Below are positions 3,108-40,313 of a stretch of 40,313 bases of DNA, piece after piece (within the stretch, counting starts at the first letter, position 1; each line of letters begins with the position of its first letter). The stretch is from Escherichia phage Mt1B1_P3. The notes under the pieces are model-generated. The model made no database searches and had not been told where the DNA came from. It worked only from the letters and a program-made list of their open reading frames with translations. Made by a program: the position numbers and the translations under genes. The stretch lies in sequence record MT496969.1; one strand, given 5' to 3'.

Positions 3108-3165
3108 AGTTGCCCTCCCGGTTTATCAGATTTCACGTAGAGTCGCCTCCACTAGTTAGTGTTAA

Positions 3166-3205
3166 CCATAAAGGCCACTACATATAGTAATGACCTTGAG
3201 TCTAA
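3166..3205 (-). promoter_or_regulatory. Putative RNase III processing hairpin (R18.5-like)
   Basis: Conserved element ATAAAGGCCAC-N10-ATGACCTTGAGTCTA also at 26682-26719 and 33882-33921; imperfect stem AAGGUCA/UGGCCUU in minus RNA; located between genes 18 and 18.5 as in T7. Confidence 0.45.
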
Positions 3206-3208
3206 CAC

Positions 3209-3472
3209 TTATTGAACACCATACCCGGTGTCATTATCTTCTGTAGCTGAGAGCACCTTATCGTACTCTGCGTTCAGGGCCTCCATATCAGCGAGCGTCT
3301 TCTCGTCAACAGACACCTTGCTTAACACAAAGTTGTGACGAGCAAGCAGCTTCTCAATGGCGTTGTAGAGCTGAGGTGAACGCTTAGTGTCATCCCGCAG
3401 GTCTTGCAGCATGAGTCGAGCACGTTCAGTATCTAGCATTAAGAGGAACTTCTCTAAGTCCATCTGCGTCAT
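3209..3472 (-). CDS. 18: Terminase small subunit (DNA packaging protein A)
   Basis: 87 aa; size and position match T7 gp18 (89 aa); stop overlaps holin gene start. Confidence 0.8.
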   Translation of the reverse strand: MTQMDLEKFLLMLDTERARLMLQDLRDDTKRSPQLYNAIEKLLARHNFVLSKVSVDEKTLADMEALNAEYDKVLSATEDNDTGYGVQ

Positions 3473-26658: not shown

Positions 26659-26681
26659 GGTTAATCCTCCGTTTAGTCTAA

Positions 26682-26719
26682 TCATAAAGGCCACTCGCTG
26701 TGAATGACCTTGAGTCTAG
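26682..26719 (-). promoter_or_regulatory. Putative RNase III processing hairpin (R4.7-like) upstream of DNAP
   Basis: Second copy of ATAAAGGCCAC-N-ATGACCTTGAGTCTA element. Confidence 0.45.
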
Positions 26720-26721
26720 AC

Positions 26722-28601
<1,880 letters not shown>

Positions 28602-33845: not shown

Positions 33846-33881
33846 GTGGTTAAATCTCCAGTAGTGTTTATTTAAGGTTAA

Positions 33882-33921
33882 TCATGAAGGCCACGACTTT
33901 GAGTCATGACCTTGAGTCTAA
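33882..33921 (-). promoter_or_regulatory. Putative RNase III processing hairpin (R1.1-like)
   Basis: Third copy of ATGAAGGCCAC-N11-ATGACCTTGAGTCTA element, in the leader of the phi1.1 transcript. Confidence 0.45.
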
Positions 33922-33941
33922 TCCTATAGTGATAGTTTAGG
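33919..33941 (-). promoter_or_regulatory. Phage RNAP promoter phi1.1, TSS about 33924
   Basis: Minus strand CCCTAAACTATCACTATAGGATTA. Confidence 0.65.
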
Positions 33942-34490: not shown

Positions 34491-37172
34491 TTACGCGAAT
34501 GCAAAGTCTGAAGACAAGATGTCTTCGATATTCAGTTTACCTTTCTTCGGAAGCTCAGGCAACTTGTCGCGCTGGCTCTCGTGAAGCTGGTATTCAAACT
34601 GCTCGTAGAAGTCAAGCAGCACATCGTTATCGCGGTAGGTCTCGACCATCGTCTCACGGACGCCACGGAACAGATACTCAGCGTCAGCCGGGATGGTCCC
34701 GAAGCTATCGTGAATCACTGCGAAGGACATCACGCCATACTTGCGGTGCGTGTGGACTACAGTCTTGCGTAGGTGGCTACCATCTTGTGAGTGGACGAAG
34801 TTCGGGCTAATGCCTGACTCCTGCTTGTGCTTGTCCAGCTCTTTCTTCGTGCCTTTGTTGACCGTAGGCTGAAGGTTGAATGACCCTAAGAACATCAGAT
34901 TCAGACGAGTGGTATCCTTCTTGCGGTATTCCTGCCAGACCGGGAAACCATCAGGTGTTACCCAGTGTACCGGAAGGCAAGGCTTCAGTATTTCTCCAGT
35001 CTTCTTGTCCTTCACTTCAGCAGCCAGCAGCTTGGCAGCACCCTGAAGCCACTTCATCGCGTCAACCGCAGCAACTACGGTCACGCTCACAGCTTCCCAA
35101 ATCATCTTAGCCATGAAGCGGGACGCTTGGCTTGGTTCGGTGAACATAGCGCCAGACCCTGAGTCAATCGCCGGCATCACGATGTCCTCATAAACTTGGT
35201 CTGCGAAGCCGTACTCTTTCGACCCATAGGCCAGAGTCATTACTGAACGCTTAGTGACCTTGCGTGACATGCCGTAAGTCAGCCACTGCCGGGCCAGCTC
35301 TCGTGTCCCCAGCTTGAGGCGTTCGGTAATCTCACCAGTTTTCTTGTCCTCGTGAGTTACCATCTCGTTGTCTGTGCCGTTAACCAGCAGGACTTTAAGC
35401 TCTTCCTCAATGCGGTCGGACACGATTCGGTAGATGTCTTGGACCTTACCGGAAGGCGTTAGGTTTACTGCATGTCCACCTATGTGATCACGAAGCATCG
35501 CGCTAAAGTGCTGAATCCCTGAGCATGACCCATCGAACGCTATCGGTAATGAGCAGGAGTAAGACAATCCGTGGTGCATTACACCAGCATACTCGAAGCA
35601 GAACGCAAGGAAGCAGAACGGAGAGTCTAACTTGCCCCACCACTCAATGCTATCCATCGGTGCCTTAGCAGCAGCCATAATGTTGTCGTGGTTGTCTTCC
35701 ACCCACTTGATGCGCTCCTCGAAGGTGACTTTATCAACACCCGCGCAGTTTGCACCATGGACCTTCAGCCATTTGAAACCGTCAGCACCAATAGGCTTAC
35801 CGACTGCCAGAGTAAGGAGACCTTTCTGCATGTCGTTACCCTGAGGGTTGAACATCGGAACAGCGTAGACGCGCCCACGCCAGTCCATGTTGTACGGGAA
35901 CCAGATGGCCTTGAACTGAGAGAACTTGTTCGCTTGGTTAACGATAAAGCTCAGTGACAATCTTCGCGACTGTCGGGCCTTCTCGCGGCGATAGATACCA
36001 GCAGCAGCCTTCTTCCATGCCTTGAGTTCCTCCTCAGTCTCACCCGCATAGTCTTCAGGCTTCAGTGGCTCCATCTGAGGGATGTCATCAATAGGCGTGT
36101 TGTTCAACTTCTCGACCATGTTCACCACGTCCAGTACCTTCTTGTTCACTTTCCAAGGTGTATTCTGGATGATATTCACAGCGTCATAGACTTCAGGCAT
36201 GTATACGTCTTCATAACGTGCCACCGCTGATTTAGACCCTAAGCGAATCAGGGGTAGCGGTCTGCGACCTTTGGCCCAGTACCCACCACCTACGACACCA
36301 GTCCACGGCTTAGGTGGAACGACGCAAGGCTGGTAGACTGGAGCTATACCCGCAAGGCTGAATCCTCGTTGTGCCATCTTCTTGACCCAGAAGTCTGACA
36401 GGTGGACCATCTCTACGTCAGCCGCTGCATTGCCAGCACCGTACCGCTTAAGCTCGACCAGTTGTGTTGACTGGATGACAATCTCAAGCATCTTGATGCC
36501 AACGTGGACAGCCTCTGTAGGACTCCAAGTTCCCCACGCATCTTCCAGTTGGCCTTGCTCCAGCATGGATGTCTCGACCGCTTGCATGTAGGCTTTCTTG
36601 TAGGACGCCCCGGCCCGCTTATTCAGGTTATCAGCTATCGCCTTCTTGAAGTGCTCTTTCTCTTTGTCACGGATGCGACCGAAGCGGATTTCGTCCTCAA
36701 GTGTGCGACCTATCGCGGAGGCCATCGGTGTAATCGGTATCCCTTCAGGCTTTACCAGCTTGGAGAGTATGACCTTCAGTATGATGACCGCAGCAGACTC
36801 GCAAGGGATACGCAGAGAGCGGTCCTTGACGGCCTTCTCTTCGGTGCTTAACATGGTGAACGCTACGCTAGGACGAGAGGTTGAAAGCTTCCCGTCTGGA
36901 CCTTCATACCACTCCCTGACGGCTTGCGCAATCTTAGGAACCAGAGTCTGCATCAAAGGCTTGGCGACCTGATTGTCTGCCAGTTCCCCGCGCTCAGTCT
37001 GTCGCTCAAGGTTTTTGATGAAACGTCGCTCGCCTTCAGTGTATGCCTCATGCTCAAGCTGAAGCTGCTTGACTGCAAGGTCCTTCCCGTAGTGGTCAGC
37101 CAGCAGGTTAAACGGCTCAATGGCGTTCGACACATCAGAGAAGTCGTGTTTATCAATAGAGATGACGCTCAT
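34491..37172 (-). CDS. 1: Single-subunit DNA-dependent RNA polymerase (T7 RNAP family)
   Basis: 893 aa; collinear with T7/T3 RNAP (KNDFSD...PFNxLADHYG, WFPYNMDWRGRVYAVPMFNPQGNDMxKGLLTLA, FDGSCSGIQHFSAMLRD, VMTLAYGS, IHDSFGT, C-terminal SDFAFA). Confidence 0.98.
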   Translation of the reverse strand: MSVISIDKHDFSDVSNAIEPFNLLADHYGKDLAVKQLQLEHEAYTEGERRFIKNLERQTERGELADNQVAKPLMQTLVPKIAQAVREWYEGPDGKLSTSRPSVAFTMLSTEEKAVKDRSLRIPCESAAVIILKVILSKLVKPEGIPITPMASAIGRTLEDEIRFGRIRDKEKEHFKKAIADNLNKRAGASYKKAYMQAVETSMLEQGQLEDAWGTWSPTEAVHVGIKMLEIVIQSTQLVELKRYGAGNAAADVEMVHLSDFWVKKMAQRGFSLAGIAPVYQPCVVPPKPWTGVVGGGYWAKGRRPLPLIRLGSKSAVARYEDVYMPEVYDAVNIIQNTPWKVNKKVLDVVNMVEKLNNTPIDDIPQMEPLKPEDYAGETEEELKAWKKAAAGIYRREKARQSRRLSLSFIVNQANKFSQFKAIWFPYNMDWRGRVYAVPMFNPQGNDMQKGLLTLAVGKPIGADGFKWLKVHGANCAGVDKVTFEERIKWVEDNHDNIMAAAKAPMDSIEWWGKLDSPFCFLAFCFEYAGVMHHGLSYSCSLPIAFDGSCSGIQHFSAMLRDHIGGHAVNLTPSGKVQDIYRIVSDRIEEELKVLLVNGTDNEMVTHEDKKTGEITERLKLGTRELARQWLTYGMSRKVTKRSVMTLAYGSKEYGFADQVYEDIVMPAIDSGSGAMFTEPSQASRFMAKMIWEAVSVTVVAAVDAMKWLQGAAKLLAAEVKDKKTGEILKPCLPVHWVTPDGFPVWQEYRKKDTTRLNLMFLGSFNLQPTVNKGTKKELDKHKQESGISPNFVHSQDGSHLRKTVVHTHRKYGVMSFAVIHDSFGTIPADAEYLFRGVRETMVETYRDNDVLLDFYEQFEYQLHESQRDKLPELPKKGKLNIEDILSSDFAFA

Positions 37173-37240
37173 ACTTAAAGTCCTTGTTATTAGTCTTTCA
37201 CTTAGAGTCTCTTTGGTCTTTCACTTGTAGTCTTAGACCT

Positions 37241-37263
37241 TTAGTCCTAAAGTGATAGTTAAG
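37241..37263 (-). promoter_or_regulatory. Degenerate phage-promoter-like sequence upstream of the RNAP gene
   Basis: Minus strand GACTTAACTATCACTTTAGGACTAA: upstream half matches consensus, but -3 and +3 deviate; functional status unknown. Confidence 0.3.
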
Positions 37264-37269
37264 TCATAA

Positions 37270-37530
37270 TCACTTGCATATCAGTTGGTTAGCGTGGAGA
37301 TGGCTGAAGTCACCATTGGTCGTGTGCTTGATGGTTGACCGTTGGTCCATCGCCTTCCAGCCTGAGACTAAAAGTTTACCATCGTCAGTGATCGGTCGTC
37401 CACCATACGCCAGACACATCAGTTCGTACTCATGGCCCTCAGCCTTCATGCGGCGATGTAAGAACTCGTCACGCTGTATTTGCTCTATACGGCTACGGAT
37501 AGATGGCTTGTTAATGTATACTGTTTTCAT
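37270..37530 (-). CDS. Early hypothetical protein (86 aa)
   Basis: ATG overlapping stop of upstream ORF (TAATG); no recognised motif. Confidence 0.55.
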   Translation of the reverse strand: MKTVYINKPSIRSRIEQIQRDEFLHRRMKAEGHEYELMCLAYGGRPITDDGKLLVSGWKAMDQRSTIKHTTNGDFSHLHANQLICK

Positions 37531-37727
37531 TACAGTTTGCTCCCAATAGTTGCTATATCCCAGACGTTCGCTAAGTTGCGCATGAATCGTCCGTTAGGTT
37601 GACGTACAGTCCAGCGGCCCAGACGTACATAGTTTAATTTGTATACTCTATGCGCTTTATTGATGTCTCTCACCAGCACGTAGGCGATAAGTCCATAGCC
37701 TATGGCTATCAATAGTGCAAGACTCAT
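37530..37727 (-). CDS. Early hypothetical small membrane protein (65 aa)
   Basis: N-terminal hydrophobic helix MSLALLIAIGYGLIAYVLV followed by basic region; weak RBS. Confidence 0.5.
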   Translation of the reverse strand: MSLALLIAIGYGLIAYVLVRDINKAHRVYKLNYVRLGRWTVRQPNGRFMRNLANVWDIATIGSKL

Positions 37728-37835
37728 AGTGATTTCCGTTTAATACAGTCGTATATCCCCCAAGCTATCAGAAAGATGACCGGAGATAAGCATACCAAAT
37801 GTCCAACACTCATAGTTAACCTCTATCAATTTAAG

Positions 37836-37888
37836 TGGTAATCTTTGAGGCCACCTATCAGTCGATGACCTCTCGTCTATCACTCAGC
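37836..37888 (-). promoter_or_regulatory. Putative RNase III processing hairpin (early region)
   Basis: AAGTGGTAATC...GAGGCCACC...GATGACCTCTCGTCTATCACTCAG; same family as elements at 38270, 39066, 39386. Confidence 0.45.
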
Positions 37889-37902
37889 TAGGCCTTACAC
37901 GG

Positions 37903-38250
37903 TTACACTTCCACCGATACAGTGGTCATCTTGCTTACAGTCAGCCCACCAGCAAGCTCAACCGCATAGCGTATCGCCTCCTCTTTGGACTTGAAGTCCT
38001 TTCCTGCAAGGTGGTAAATATCACCTGTTATTACCTTAGAAGGCCGGCGACTCACCGCAATGGCGTTTTCCATGGCAAGCTCACCACGGATATACTGAGT
38101 AAACCAGCGCTTCACCGAACTCGTTCCCACCCCGAACTTTTGGGCGGTTTCAGTCACCCTATCCATAACTCCCTCAGGCAGAGAGGTGTAGTAGTTAACA
38201 ACGTTGAGTTTAAATGCTACCGAGAATACATTGCGAGTTTTAGCAGTCAT
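37903..38250 (-). CDS. Early protein with transposase-type helix-turn-helix N-terminus (115 aa)
   Basis: FSVAFKLNVVNYY...TETAQKFGVGTSSVKRWFTQY resembles the IS3/IS911 OrfA HTH signature (FSxEFKLxVV...G.S...V..W..Y); GAAGGA RBS. Confidence 0.65.
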   Translation of the reverse strand: MTAKTRNVFSVAFKLNVVNYYTSLPEGVMDRVTETAQKFGVGTSSVKRWFTQYIRGELAMENAIAVSRRPSKVITGDIYHLAGKDFKSKEEAIRYAVELAGGLTVSKMTTVSVEV

Positions 38251-38269
38251 TATTCTTTCCTTCTGTAGT

Positions 38270-38328
38270 TATCAAGTGGTAATCACTCAGGCCACCATGT
38301 AGATGACCTGTAGTTTAACACTCAGTAC
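38270..38328 (-). promoter_or_regulatory. Putative RNase III processing hairpin (early region)
   Basis: Minus RNA can pair CAGGUCAU with GUGGCCUG (8 bp incl. G-U) around a 7-nt loop, flanked by imperfect lower stem. Confidence 0.45.
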
Positions 38329-38352
38329 CCACCTGTCAGCGTTATGGTCAGG

Positions 38353-38520
38353 CTATGGTAAATATTTCTTGTCCTCAGCGTGTAGGCTGTCGTGTATGCG
38401 CTTGCGTCTCCTGTAGACCACTTTCAAGAGGCGCATAGACTCCTCGTGGTTTAATCTCCCGGTCTTGACCATAAGCCGGGCGTTGGTGACGTGGTGCTGG
38501 CAGAGACCATAAGTTACCAT
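38353..38520 (-). CDS. Small early ORF (55 aa), hypothetical
   Basis: Hand translation MVTYGLCQHHVTNARLMVKTGRLNHEESMRLLKVVYRRRKRIHDSLHAEDKKYLP; ATG overlaps Ocr stop (TGATG), GAGGAGG 10 nt upstream. Confidence 0.4.
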   Translation of the reverse strand: MVTYGLCQHHVTNARLMVKTGRLNHEESMRLLKVVYRRRKRIHDSLHAEDKKYLP

Positions 38521-39050
38521 CACTCGCAGTCCTCCTCAGCAGCCTCAGGATCGAACACTACGTTATCGTTGATGTCTTCGACCTGCATGTGAAAACCTTC
38601 CTCATAGAGTTCTTTTGCACATGCAATAGCCTCGCAAAGTGATACAGCTGCCTCAATTATCTCGCCTGTTCTAGTGTCAACTACCCAATATTCAGCCTTT
38701 TCGTCCTCCTCTTCAGCCTTTTCGTCTTCCTCTTCAGCCTCAAACCAGACCACCTCAGAGCTATTAGACACATCGTTATACAGTGCCTCATAGATGCGAG
38801 CTTGTAGTATACGCGTTACGTCCTTGGTCTCAGGCATCAGCCCAGAGTCTTCGAACTCATTGTCAATACCATCAGCAGCCATCACCGTGTAAATCTCGTG
38901 GTAATAATGCGGAACATTACCGTCTACGACCTCATGCAGCGCATCACTGTAGTCATCGCCTTCAGCTATTTCGTCGCACTGAATACGCTCATTGAACAGC
39001 TCAACGGTTGCAGCCAGCAGCTCATAGTATGCGTTAGCGTTACGTTCCAT
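38520..39050 (-). CDS. ocr: Ocr-like DNA-mimic anti-restriction protein (gp0.3) with C-terminal extension
   Basis: Core [47 protein letters not shown] matches T7 Ocr ([46 protein letters not shown]); 176 aa vs 117 aa in T7, with duplicated EEDEKAE and about 55 extra C-terminal residues. Confidence 0.9.
   Translation of the reverse strand: [176 protein letters not shown]
38690..38740. repeat. 21-bp tandem duplication inside ocr (encodes EEDEKAE x2)
   Basis: cagccttttcgtcctcctctt / cagccttttcgtcttcctctt adjacent copies on plus strand. Confidence 0.8.
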
Positions 39051-39065
39051 AGTTATATCCTCTCA

Positions 39066-39124
39066 GTTGTTAGTGACTATCAGTCAGGCCGCTATAAGTC
39101 TAACGACCTGTAGTTAATCACTCT
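39066..39124 (-). promoter_or_regulatory. Putative RNase III processing hairpin (R0.5-like)
   Basis: GTTAGTGACTATCAGTCAGGCCGC-loop-ACGACCTGTAGTTAATCACT; imperfect long hairpin between first early ORF and ocr. Confidence 0.45.
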
Positions 39125-39378
39125 CAGTTAGCGAAATAAGGAGCTGAGACGCCCGCTGTAGGACTCACGGTTATCTGCGAATCTATCAGGTAGGTCTCGT
39201 TGTCTATGCGCACAGTATCTATGCTGTAGTTGCTGAACGGCTTGCTTGAGACCTTGCGCACTACCACACGGTGACGCGCTCCTGTCATCTCTTTAAGCTG
39301 AATCCACGCATAACCTTTAGTGTTCACGAATACTTCATTGTGATTAGTGATTGTGCTTAAGTGTTTCATAGTGTTCAT
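39124..39378 (-). CDS. First early ORF (84 aa), hypothetical
   Basis: Open frame fills the interval between two RNase III-like elements upstream of ocr; no obvious Shine-Dalgarno; no recognised motif. Confidence 0.45.
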   Translation of the reverse strand: MNTMKHLSTITNHNEVFVNTKGYAWIQLKEMTGARHRVVVRKVSSKPFSNYSIDTVRIDNETYLIDSQITVSPTAGVSAPYFAN

Positions 39379-39385
39379 CCGTTAA

Positions 39386-39449
39386 GTTAGTGACTATCAG
39401 TCAGGGCCTTCAGATGTAGACTCAAAGGCCCTGTAGTTAGTCGCTATCT
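39386..39449 (-). promoter_or_regulatory. Putative RNase III processing hairpin (R0.3-like) in early leader
   Basis: Perfect 8-bp inverted repeat AGGGCCTT (39403-39410) / AAGGCCCT (39425-39432) with 14-nt loop, flanked by imperfectly complementary arms. Confidence 0.5.
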
Positions 39450-39678
39450 GCGTACATTAAGAGTTTATCCAGATTGTTAAAGAGCATTGTTGGCTGTCCA
39501 ACTCGGGGTATTGCGTAGTTCCCAACGTTCTCTGTTACCGCGCTATAGGTAGTAACTTAGTATCCGACAATCAGACCTTCTTCACTCGGTGAAGCCCGGC
39601 CCCTCAATTTACTCTTAGTGAGGCGGTTAGAGTGTACCTGCTACCAATTCCGTGGTGGCGTCTTACTGCTTTAGATTC

Positions 39679-39708
39679 ATAATACTTTAATTATATACTT
39701 CTTGTCAA
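39679..39708 (-). promoter_or_regulatory. Candidate host sigma70 early promoter
   Basis: Minus strand TTGACA (plus 39703-39708) then 18 nt then TATTAT (plus 39679-39684); correct orientation for early genes. Only one of the expected multiple early promoters could be picked out by eye. Confidence 0.35.
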
Positions 39709-39999
39709 CTACTTTCTGTCGGTTGCCTGTTGTTCGTATGTCTTACAGGCTGACTACTTAACCGGACCGGACCGGCGTCTTCACTATCCGGTTGTTGCCG
39801 TGTCGTGTTGACGGAAGCTATTAGGCCATATCCTTGACCTATAGTCAATAGGTAATTTGAAATAATACTGATTAAGCTATCGTCGGCCTCATGGTGTAAG
39901 AGGATATAGTCTTTGACTAACATGTCTTGGACCTTAAGTCTATAGCTCTGTGTCTAGTAACTGTAGATCTATGACTGTAGGTGTTGGTGTCTTATGGTT

Positions 40000-40076
40000 G
40001 AGACTGTAGGTTAGTGAGACTGTAGGTTAGTGAGACTGTAGGTTAGTGAGACTGTAGGTTAGTGAGACTGTAGGTG
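40000..40076. repeat. Tandem 16-bp repeats (gagactgtaggttagt x4.8) adjacent to right DTR
   Basis: Four exact copies plus a partial one, preceded by a degenerate copy at 39971-39983. Confidence 0.9.
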
Positions 40077-40111
40077 TAGGACGTAATGTTATACTATAAC
40101 ACTATACAGAT

Positions 40112-40313
40112 AGAGACTCAAAGAAGACCTATAGCCTCTACCTATCGTCCTTCCATAAGCCATAGCCTAGACCTATCGTTGACCTGAAGTCCTGACCATC
40201 GGTCCAACCTTATGACAGACTGGCTGTGACTGCAAGGAGTAGTAACGGGTAGGGCCTTTGGTCTGGACTTAAAGAGGGCCTATGGGGAGACTTGAGGTTC
40301 TTGAACTGTGAGA
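40112..40313. repeat. Right direct terminal repeat (DTR)
   Basis: Identical to bases 1-202. Confidence 0.85.

Follow-up and report, generated by a model that had tools for sequence, protein, structure and literature searches.

T7-group early regions hold genes for host takeover and anti-defence, such as those for Ocr, SAM lyase and the gp0.7 kinase, and most of the small accessory genes in them have no assigned function. To our knowledge, none of the T7 class I genes encodes a DNA-binding-type protein. T7 Gp5.7 has been described as wHTH-like (PMC5569994). A gene for a 115-aa protein with a transposase-like helix-turn-helix (HTH) at positions 37903-38250 of the window, by which we mean the whole 40,313-nt stretch of Escherichia phage Mt1B1_P3 DNA analyzed here (MT496969.1), brings a DNA-binding-type protein to such a region and raises the question of where this protein comes from and what it does. 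We describe a new combination at this locus: an HTH of the transposase type fused to a portable, hitherto undescribed domain, encoded in a dispensable early cassette that is delimited by RNase III-type hairpins.

The gene and its genome setting

The ATG-started ORF is real and lies on the minus strand. The original prediction placed it at the right coordinates and left its strand and the C-terminal half of its product undescribed; the two peptides that it quoted, FSVAFKLNVVNYY and AQKFGVGTSSVKRWFTQY, are both found in the product. It had also framed the locus by T7, which was misplaced: the phage is K1F-like (Kayfunavirus), with ~99% identity to ASO2B and MT1B1P3. Specifically, over positions 37000-40313 identity amounts to 98.6-99.1% with Kayfunavirus MT1B1P3 and with Escherichia phage vB_EcoA_ASO2B, and to ~92% with K1F across the common parts. 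Gene order in the window runs right to left, and the early (class I) genes are those at coordinates above the RNA polymerase (RNAP) gene; they encode a gp0.2-like protein, an Ocr homologue, a gp0.35-like protein, the 115-aa HTH protein, a tiny ORF product, and gp0.37-like and gp0.38-like proteins. The features of this setting are as follows.

34491-37172, minus strand: T7-type RNA polymerase gene
37724-37813, minus strand: 29-aa hydrophobic ORF (MSVGHLVCLSPVIFLIAWGIYDCIKRKSL) with a GAGG Shine-Dalgarno sequence, directly after the downstream hairpin (hairpin B, below)
37903..38250, minus strand: CDS of the HTH gene, an accessory class I (early) gene; 115 aa, 12.7 kDa, pI 9.6
38258..38262, minus strand: Shine-Dalgarno sequence AAGGA, 7 nt before the ATG of the HTH gene, read from the sequence
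38520-39050, minus strand: Ocr homologue, 176 aa

Several side observations concern the neighbors. The Ocr homologue has a ~55-aa C-terminal extension past its acidic tail (YWVVDTRTGEIIEAAVSLCEAIACAKELYEEGFHMQVEDINDNVVF…; 38523-38690), which is common to K1F and pO2 and is lacking from T7 Ocr and from the Ocr of Klebsiella phage VLCpiA3d. Relative to K1F it also carries a 21-nt tandem duplication (EEEDEKA twice; repeat at 38691-38732). The 29-aa ORF stands in place of K1F gp0.36 (56 aa, membrane-like), its stop codon overlaps the gp0.37 start (ATGA), and the same small ORF is found in IMEP24. The 47-aa, GTG-started version returned by the ORF finder (37740-37883; phrog_36394) crosses hairpin B and is probably over-extended. 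Finally, T7-type single-subunit RNAPs are labelled 'N4-like RNA polymerase' in RefSeq NC_007636, NC_031123, NC_023558 and others, which is an annotation-propagation error.

The N-terminal half is a transposase-type HTH

Alignments and structure prediction divide the protein into three parts.

38086..38250, minus strand: N-domain, aa 1-55, basic three-helix HTH of the IS3-OrfA/HTH_Tnp_1/Brinker type
38035..38085, minus strand: linker, aa 56-72 (GELAMENAIAVSRRPSK), low-confidence model (pLDDT ~52); from alignments and AlphaFold2
37906..38034, minus strand: C-domain, aa 73-115, with a beta-hairpin (79-86), a helix (89-99) and a beta-like tail; family-specific

Searched on its own, the window protein reached no Pfam family at gathering score (GA). 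Its best match was BrkDBD (20.6 bits, E=4.2e-4; GA 23.4), followed by HTH_Tnp_ISL3 (16.8 bits), HTH_28 (16.6 bits) and HTH_Tnp_1 (14.0 bits, E=0.062; GA 24.1). However, HTH_Tnp_1 was matched at E<=0.01 by 8 of 13 diverse family members (best 3.5e-10, 40.4 bits), and two relatives score above its GA (P0025 at 27.6 bits and P0041 at 40.4 bits). Of the two Pfam families that had been suggested for this protein, HTH_Tnp_1 and HTH_28, neither is thus assigned to the window protein itself, and HTH_Tnp_1 is reached through its relatives. Precomputed Pfam annotation also gives PF01527 to five family clusters. When 5.8e9 proteins were searched with a profile of the N-domains, bacterial OrfA proteins of the IS3 type, 97 aa in length, were recovered at E=4e-5 to 8e-4; these, in which an HTH is followed by …LKRENARLQKEVEILKSAAAFFAKE, we take to be canonical IS3-family OrfA proteins. 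Against the PDB, a profile of the whole family matched the Brinker DNA-binding domain (2glo, E=0.0022) and the transposase-like Cgl2762 (2jn6). NCBIfam gave weak IS3, IS66 and IS630 HTH matches only, and the single kind of match in PHROGs was weak and to transposase.

AlphaFold2 predicted three helices in the N-domain (residues 11-23, 31-39 and 43-54) with a pLDDT of ~90, so that the absence of an HTH fold, which the original prediction had named as a point against itself, is not what the model gives. Foldseek placed TnpE (2rn7) first among PDB structures and homeodomains after it, all of these matches being weak (E>=0.5). The domain has a pI of 10.1 and a net charge of +4.5, and it is basic in four other members as well; W49, in the recognition helix, is invariant across the family alignment. 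As judged by the Pfam matches of the family and by the N-domain and PDB profiles, the N-terminal half belongs to the HTH_Tnp_1/Brinker group at the domain level, by transitive homology, and is a remote homologue of IS3-family OrfA, HTH_Tnp_1 and the Brinker DNA-binding domain. The IS3-OrfA-type HTH that had been proposed for the N-terminus is therefore upheld. Brinker (PF09607, 2glo), the top sequence match in both Pfam and the PDB, has the same helix pattern, but it is a eukaryotic repressor and the score of the 115-aa protein lies under the Pfam threshold; this likeness reflects the common transposase-type HTH.

The protein is not part of an insertion sequence

The HTH resembles that of IS3 OrfA proteins (PF01527; IS911 OrfA and P0048-P0052) in the motif R-x-[YF]-[ST]-x-x-FK-[IL]-x-x-V … A-x-x-[FL]-G-V-x-x-x-[ST]-[VL]-x-x-W, and the proteins agree in having a basic, three-helix HTH within a whole length of ~100 aa. 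The suggestion that the gene is a domesticated IS fragment is nevertheless not supported. Identity to real OrfA proteins is 25-29%. No heptad-leucine region was found in residues 56-115, where an OrfA-type leucine zipper would lie; its place is taken by the linker and the unrelated beta-hairpin/helix domain, whereas the true OrfA P0048 has …LKRENARLQKEVEILKSAAAFFA. Downstream of the gene there is no transposase ORF or DDE-type OrfB but an RNase III-type hairpin and the 29-aa ORF, and the locus contains neither a -1 frameshift site nor terminal inverted repeats, the flanking repeats being direct. The gene is, furthermore, encoded in the early operon of a strictly lytic phage. Because zipper, frameshift site, OrfB and inverted repeats are all absent, the 115-aa protein is not an IS3 OrfA in the functional sense, and on its sequence it is neither a transposase nor part of an IS element. 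Its likeness to OrfA reflects ancient common ancestry of the HTH, with no recognizable recent capture.

A related proposal is a domesticated IS3 OrfA that serves as decoy or regulator, either by binding to the inverted repeats of IS3-family elements in the host or by titrating the transposase of these elements. The 97-aa OrfA proteins are indeed the nearest non-phage relatives of the N-domain, and orthologues have been auto-named 'Transposase' in UniProt. However, the zipper that mediates the OrfA-OrfAB interaction is missing by comparison with P0048, the identity is as low as stated above, and the two N-domain clades of the family (dN 0.77, ~37% identity) are hard to square with one fixed IS target; nor would a 15-minute lytic cycle evidently gain from such an activity. 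We regard this proposal as highly improbable.

The linker and C-domain are the most conserved part of the protein

Residues 56-115 are close to invariant in Kayfunavirus and are the most conserved part of the protein. Of the nine residues that are invariant throughout the family, five (G56, L58, N62, A63 and P70) are in the linker; with Y79, F86 and A96 they make up the positions outside the HTH that do not vary between genera. The AlphaFold2 model of this half is moderate (pLDDT 50-78; 68 for the C-domain) and has a further short helix at residues 60-67. The C-terminal tail, LTVSKMTTVSVEV, has an alternating pattern and is unstructured in the modelled monomer though near-invariant, as would suit a strand that pairs with a partner.

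Searches with the C-terminal half returned no Pfam family, the best match being DUF2188 at 13.9 bits, and among 1.84 billion representative sequences they returned only family members and spurious repeat proteins. The similarity to DUF2188 (PF09954) is a weak local match at the beta-alpha motif DFKSKEEAIRYAVELAGG, seen in four scanned members (E 0.06-0.15); it amounts to 13-14 bits against a GA of 22 over ~20 residues, and DUF2188 is itself without known function. As far as these searches reach, the C-domain belongs to no described family.

Several other candidates were considered and rejected. LRR/repebody matches, the only ones that phmmer gave for the whole protein in the PDB, are artefacts that sum 16-residue matches of NYYTSLPEGVMDRVTE to LRR repeats, and BNR, cadherin-like and antifreeze beta-roll proteins owe their phmmer scores against the C-domain to repeated short words (VTGDIQHLAG) and are not homologues. 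The IMEP24 Ocr fusion described below and a common S..EAI..A.EL pattern prompted a comparison with the ~55-aa extension of K1F-type Ocr, which gave a BLASTP E of 4.3 and an HMM score of 3.8 bits in a different register. A KS.EEA and AG..V.[RK] pattern likewise prompted a comparison with Gp2, the host-RNAP inhibitor; it was rejected at the sequence level, with HMM scores of 0.3 bits (T7 Gp2) and 3.0 bits (window Gp2) against a 99th percentile of 4.1 bits for shuffled controls, and with the register off. The xLSLx of the linker resembles the beta-clamp-binding motif QL[SD]LF, but the key Q and F positions are not conserved (E/L/I and S/D/E).

The two halves have different histories

We estimated dN and dS separately for the N- and C-terminal halves by the Nei-Gojobori method. 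For the window and pO2, the N-half had a dN of 0.77 and a dS of 1.6, the C-half a dN of 0.10 and a dS of 0.57. Among close relatives the silent-site pattern was reversed, dS being higher for the C-half (0.3-0.8; omega_C 0.05-0.12) than for the N-half (0.08-0.15). Across informative pairs omega_N was 0.14-0.56; omega_C was 0.04-0.2 for most pairs and 0.46 for one. With dN/dS thus below 1 in either half, purifying selection acts on the N-half and, most strongly, on the C-half, and the substitution pattern marks the HTH gene as a real gene under selection. The HTH half falls into two clades; the pO2-type N-domain is ~37% identical to that of the window, and its clade has an eight-residue insertion. 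Since the two halves differ in dS, they have different histories, which points to recombination at the conserved linker. The lower conservation of the HTH half counts against reading the protein as a DNA-binding accessory protein, because the usual pattern in transcription factors is the reverse.

The C-terminal half occurs without the HTH

Other architectures point to the portability of the C-half. In IMEP24 it is fused in frame after Ocr residue 128, with the junction at an AIA microhomology (L004 1275-1835). In Cronobacter phage Dev2 it is preceded by 45 residues with a weak match to the N-terminus of a T3-type SAM lyase (L003 759-1076), in P0029 by the N-terminus of gp0.35, and in P0019 by yet another N-terminus; P0030 (56 aa) consists of little besides the C-domain. 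An extra N-terminal domain or second HTH is present in Pectobacterium phage JJY1 and P0041. Phimunavirus Phoria keeps HTH and linker and has a different C-terminal region.

These variants bear on an alternative in which the protein is an HTH-effector fusion in the manner of AcrIIA1 or the Aca-Acr proteins: linker and C-domain would bind a conserved host protein, of defence or housekeeping, and the HTH would merely tether the protein to DNA or autoregulate early transcription. Retention of the C-domain in frame without the HTH is unexpected for a mere HTH dimerization module, unless the deletions are recent. The C-half is portable, alone or in fusions, and much more conserved than the HTH; the differing dS of the halves and the recombination at the linker fit the same picture, as do the host-takeover and anti-restriction genes next door and the invariant linker, which is modelled as disordered, as expected of a binding motif. 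Both N-truncated variants recovered by frame-blind tblastn are in frame, which at 2/2 is suggestive and not significant (p ~1/9). On the other hand, each HTH-less variant is a singleton cluster, so that these variants may be recent, unselected deletions and the low dN/dS could predate them. The protein also shows no likeness to known anti-defence or defence proteins (nothing in PADLOC, the weak transposase match in PHROGs), and the C-domain model is of low confidence. We consider this the most serious alternative, possible if somewhat unlikely. Its stronger form, in which linker and C-domain (~aa 56-115) make up a portable effector with which T7-group phages target the host and the IS3-type HTH is an exchangeable targeting or autoregulatory head, is in our judgment doubtful; such an effector would work with or without the HTH and would have been repeatedly re-fused to early proteins, including Ocr.

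RNase III-type hairpins flank the gene

The HTH gene is flanked by a 55-nt direct repeat (38274-38325 and 37833-37887). Read on the coding strand, both copies fold as hairpins in which an internal loop separates a lower from an upper stem. The elements relevant to early expression are listed here.

38257..38330, minus strand: hairpin A, upstream, RNase III-type; by fold and alignment with T7 R0.3/R0.5/R1
37818..37892, minus strand: hairpin B, downstream, RNase III-type, common to K1F; by fold and alignment with T7 R0.3/R0.5/R1
39679..39708, minus strand: best sigma-70-type early promoter candidate, TTGACA-18-TATTAT, 11/12, the presumed start of the early transcript; by consensus scan only

The T7 hairpins used for comparison are those in the intergenic regions upstream of genes 0.3, 0.5 and 1, which we take to be the mapped sites R0.3, R0.5 and R1 (Dunn and Studier 1983). 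The RefSeq T7 feature table has no entries for R0.3, R0.5 and R1. Window and T7 hairpins have the consensus AGTGATAAACTACAGGTCATC…GGTGGCCTGAATGATTATCACTTA in common, and a covariance model was built from four window and three T7 hairpins. Hairpin A scored 73.7 bits against this model, of whose training set it is a part. The model found hairpins on either side of the orthologue in pO2, Penshu1, SFPH2 and SH3 (54-71 bits) and around the IMEP24 fusion gene, again on both sides; loci from more distant genera had a hairpin on one flank only or on neither. Rfam gave no match in 37000-40313. Like T7 R0.3, R0.5 and R1, the flanking hairpins lie at intergenic positions, align with them and adopt the same fold, and cleavage is predicted. 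Sequence and predicted structure place them in the T7 RNase III site family, and the RNase III-like brackets noted originally turn out to be T7-type hairpins on both flanks, here and in the four other Kayfunavirus carriers.

No phage-RNAP promoter core (CACTATAGG) was found upstream of the RNAP gene, and the data support a location of the HTH gene in the early region predicted to be transcribed by host RNAP. Given T7-type RNase III hairpins on both flanks, it is reasonable to infer that the host-RNAP transcript would be cut by RNase III into a monocistronic mRNA. Here, RNase III hairpins delimit exchangeable single-gene cassettes in T7-group genomes.

Further matches to the covariance model occur on the minus strand at 3141-3217 (52.9 bits), 26661-26729 (44.0) and 33865-33933 (32.4) and are presumably counterparts of the T7 class II/III-region sites. 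A weak sigma-70-like match overlaps hairpin A (38312-38339, minus strand; CTGACA-16-TAAACT with a TG extension, 9/12) and may be due to chance; in the ASO2B record another weak promoter is annotated just upstream of the gene start, with a 2-nt overlap. The T7 minor E. coli promoters B and C occupy comparable inter-hairpin positions.

The gene is a dispensable accessory with a conserved position

The protein or part of it is encoded in 25 of 50,697 phage records, and the surrounding early region is matched by 248. Thirteen phage records contain orthologues with 91-100% identity, and orthologues in other genera show 45-57%. Clustering at 90% identity divides the family into 34 clusters, and at 50% it leaves ~10 representatives. 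All carrier contigs long enough to judge are ~40-kb Autographiviridae genomes, and at least five genera or lineages have the two-domain architecture in common.

K1F and most relatives lack the HTH gene. The segment missing from K1F has GCTGAG microhomology at both edges:

37889..38373, minus strand: 485-bp segment with the extended 3' end of gp0.35, hairpin A and the HTH gene; from a blastn map and alignment

A natural disruption of the ORF was also observed in P0046, an ENA metagenome contig from a close relative, in which a frameshift leaves a 45-aa copy ending …AQKFGWGRVR before the stop. Absence from K1F and most relatives and the frameshift in P0046 indicate that the gene is dispensable. 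The original prediction had counted absence or disruption in relatives against it; both occur, and they mean that the gene can be spared and not that it is functionless.

The same facts could be taken to describe a functionless passenger, a decaying ORF between RNase III sites that is heading for loss, and several N-terminal deletions add to that impression. However, both halves are under purifying selection, at a dS of 0.3-0.8 within Kayfunavirus and at saturation between genera, and the two-domain architecture has been conserved over the breadth of lineages given above, which makes a passenger very unlikely.

In nearly all carriers examined, the gene has an anti-restriction gene (for Ocr or a SAM lyase) on one side and the gene for the gp0.7 kinase or for RNAP on the other, a position conserved in Kayfunavirus, Foetvirus and two metagenomic lineages. 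The exception is the Przondovirus VLCpiA3d, a Klebsiella phage in which it is the first annotated gene, upstream of Ocr. In five lineages it is directly upstream of the kinase gene (SRT7, Dev2, SFPH2 and the contigs P0039 and P0041; loci L005, L003, L012, L021 and L023), with a gap of 2-37 nt in SRT7, Dev2, P0039 and P0041 and of 92 nt, including the downstream hairpin, in SFPH2. The window/K1F lineage has no gp0.7-type kinase.

Proposed function

Our preferred reading, held tentatively and at a little under an even chance, is that the gene encodes an early DNA-binding accessory protein whose linker and C-domain supply dimerization or partner docking. Host RNAP would transcribe the gene from sigma-70 promoters at the left end, and RNase III would cut at the two flanking T7-type hairpins to give a monocistronic mRNA with hairpin B as its stabilizing 3' end. 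The HTH would then bind a site in host DNA or in the early region of the phage, while linker and C-domain would mediate dimerization, or docking to a conserved partner, via the exposed C-terminal strand. The protein would thereby act as an early accessory regulator or host-takeover factor and would fill the slot of T7 genes 0.4-0.6, just ahead of the 0.7 kinase.

Annotation, significance and known systems

Our literature searches found no functional study of this protein family, and the part of the SH3 genome paper available to us (PMC4925675) contains no functional information on the orthologue. Existing labels for orthologues are 'hypothetical protein', 'Transposase' (UniProt) and 'SiR5 protein' (a TPA name). 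Dev2 gp0.2, a SAM-lyase N-terminal fragment joined to the C-domain, is wrongly labelled 'SAM-dependent methyltransferase' in RefSeq, and the Ocr-C-domain chimera of IMEP24 is recorded as 'DNA mimic ocr'. The 'Transposase' and 'SAM-dependent methyltransferase' labels mislead safety screens of therapeutic phages, as no transposase is encoded at this locus. The C-terminal domain, being small, portable and strongly conserved, is a sensible candidate for pull-down experiments and defence-panel screens.

HTH-effector fusions are found among phage counter-defence proteins, AcrIIA1 and the Aca-Acr fusions being examples. Aca repressors are described in a published account (PMC9410906). The 115-aa protein has no sequence or fold similarity to AcrIIA1 or the Aca-Acr fusions, but like them it combines a small N-terminal HTH with a C-terminal module that is separable and is also found in proteins lacking the HTH, a likeness to be taken as analogy only. 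If linker and C-domain do form a portable effector, the protein would be a lytic-phage analogue of the Aca-Acr fusions, aimed at a conserved enterobacterial protein or defence system.
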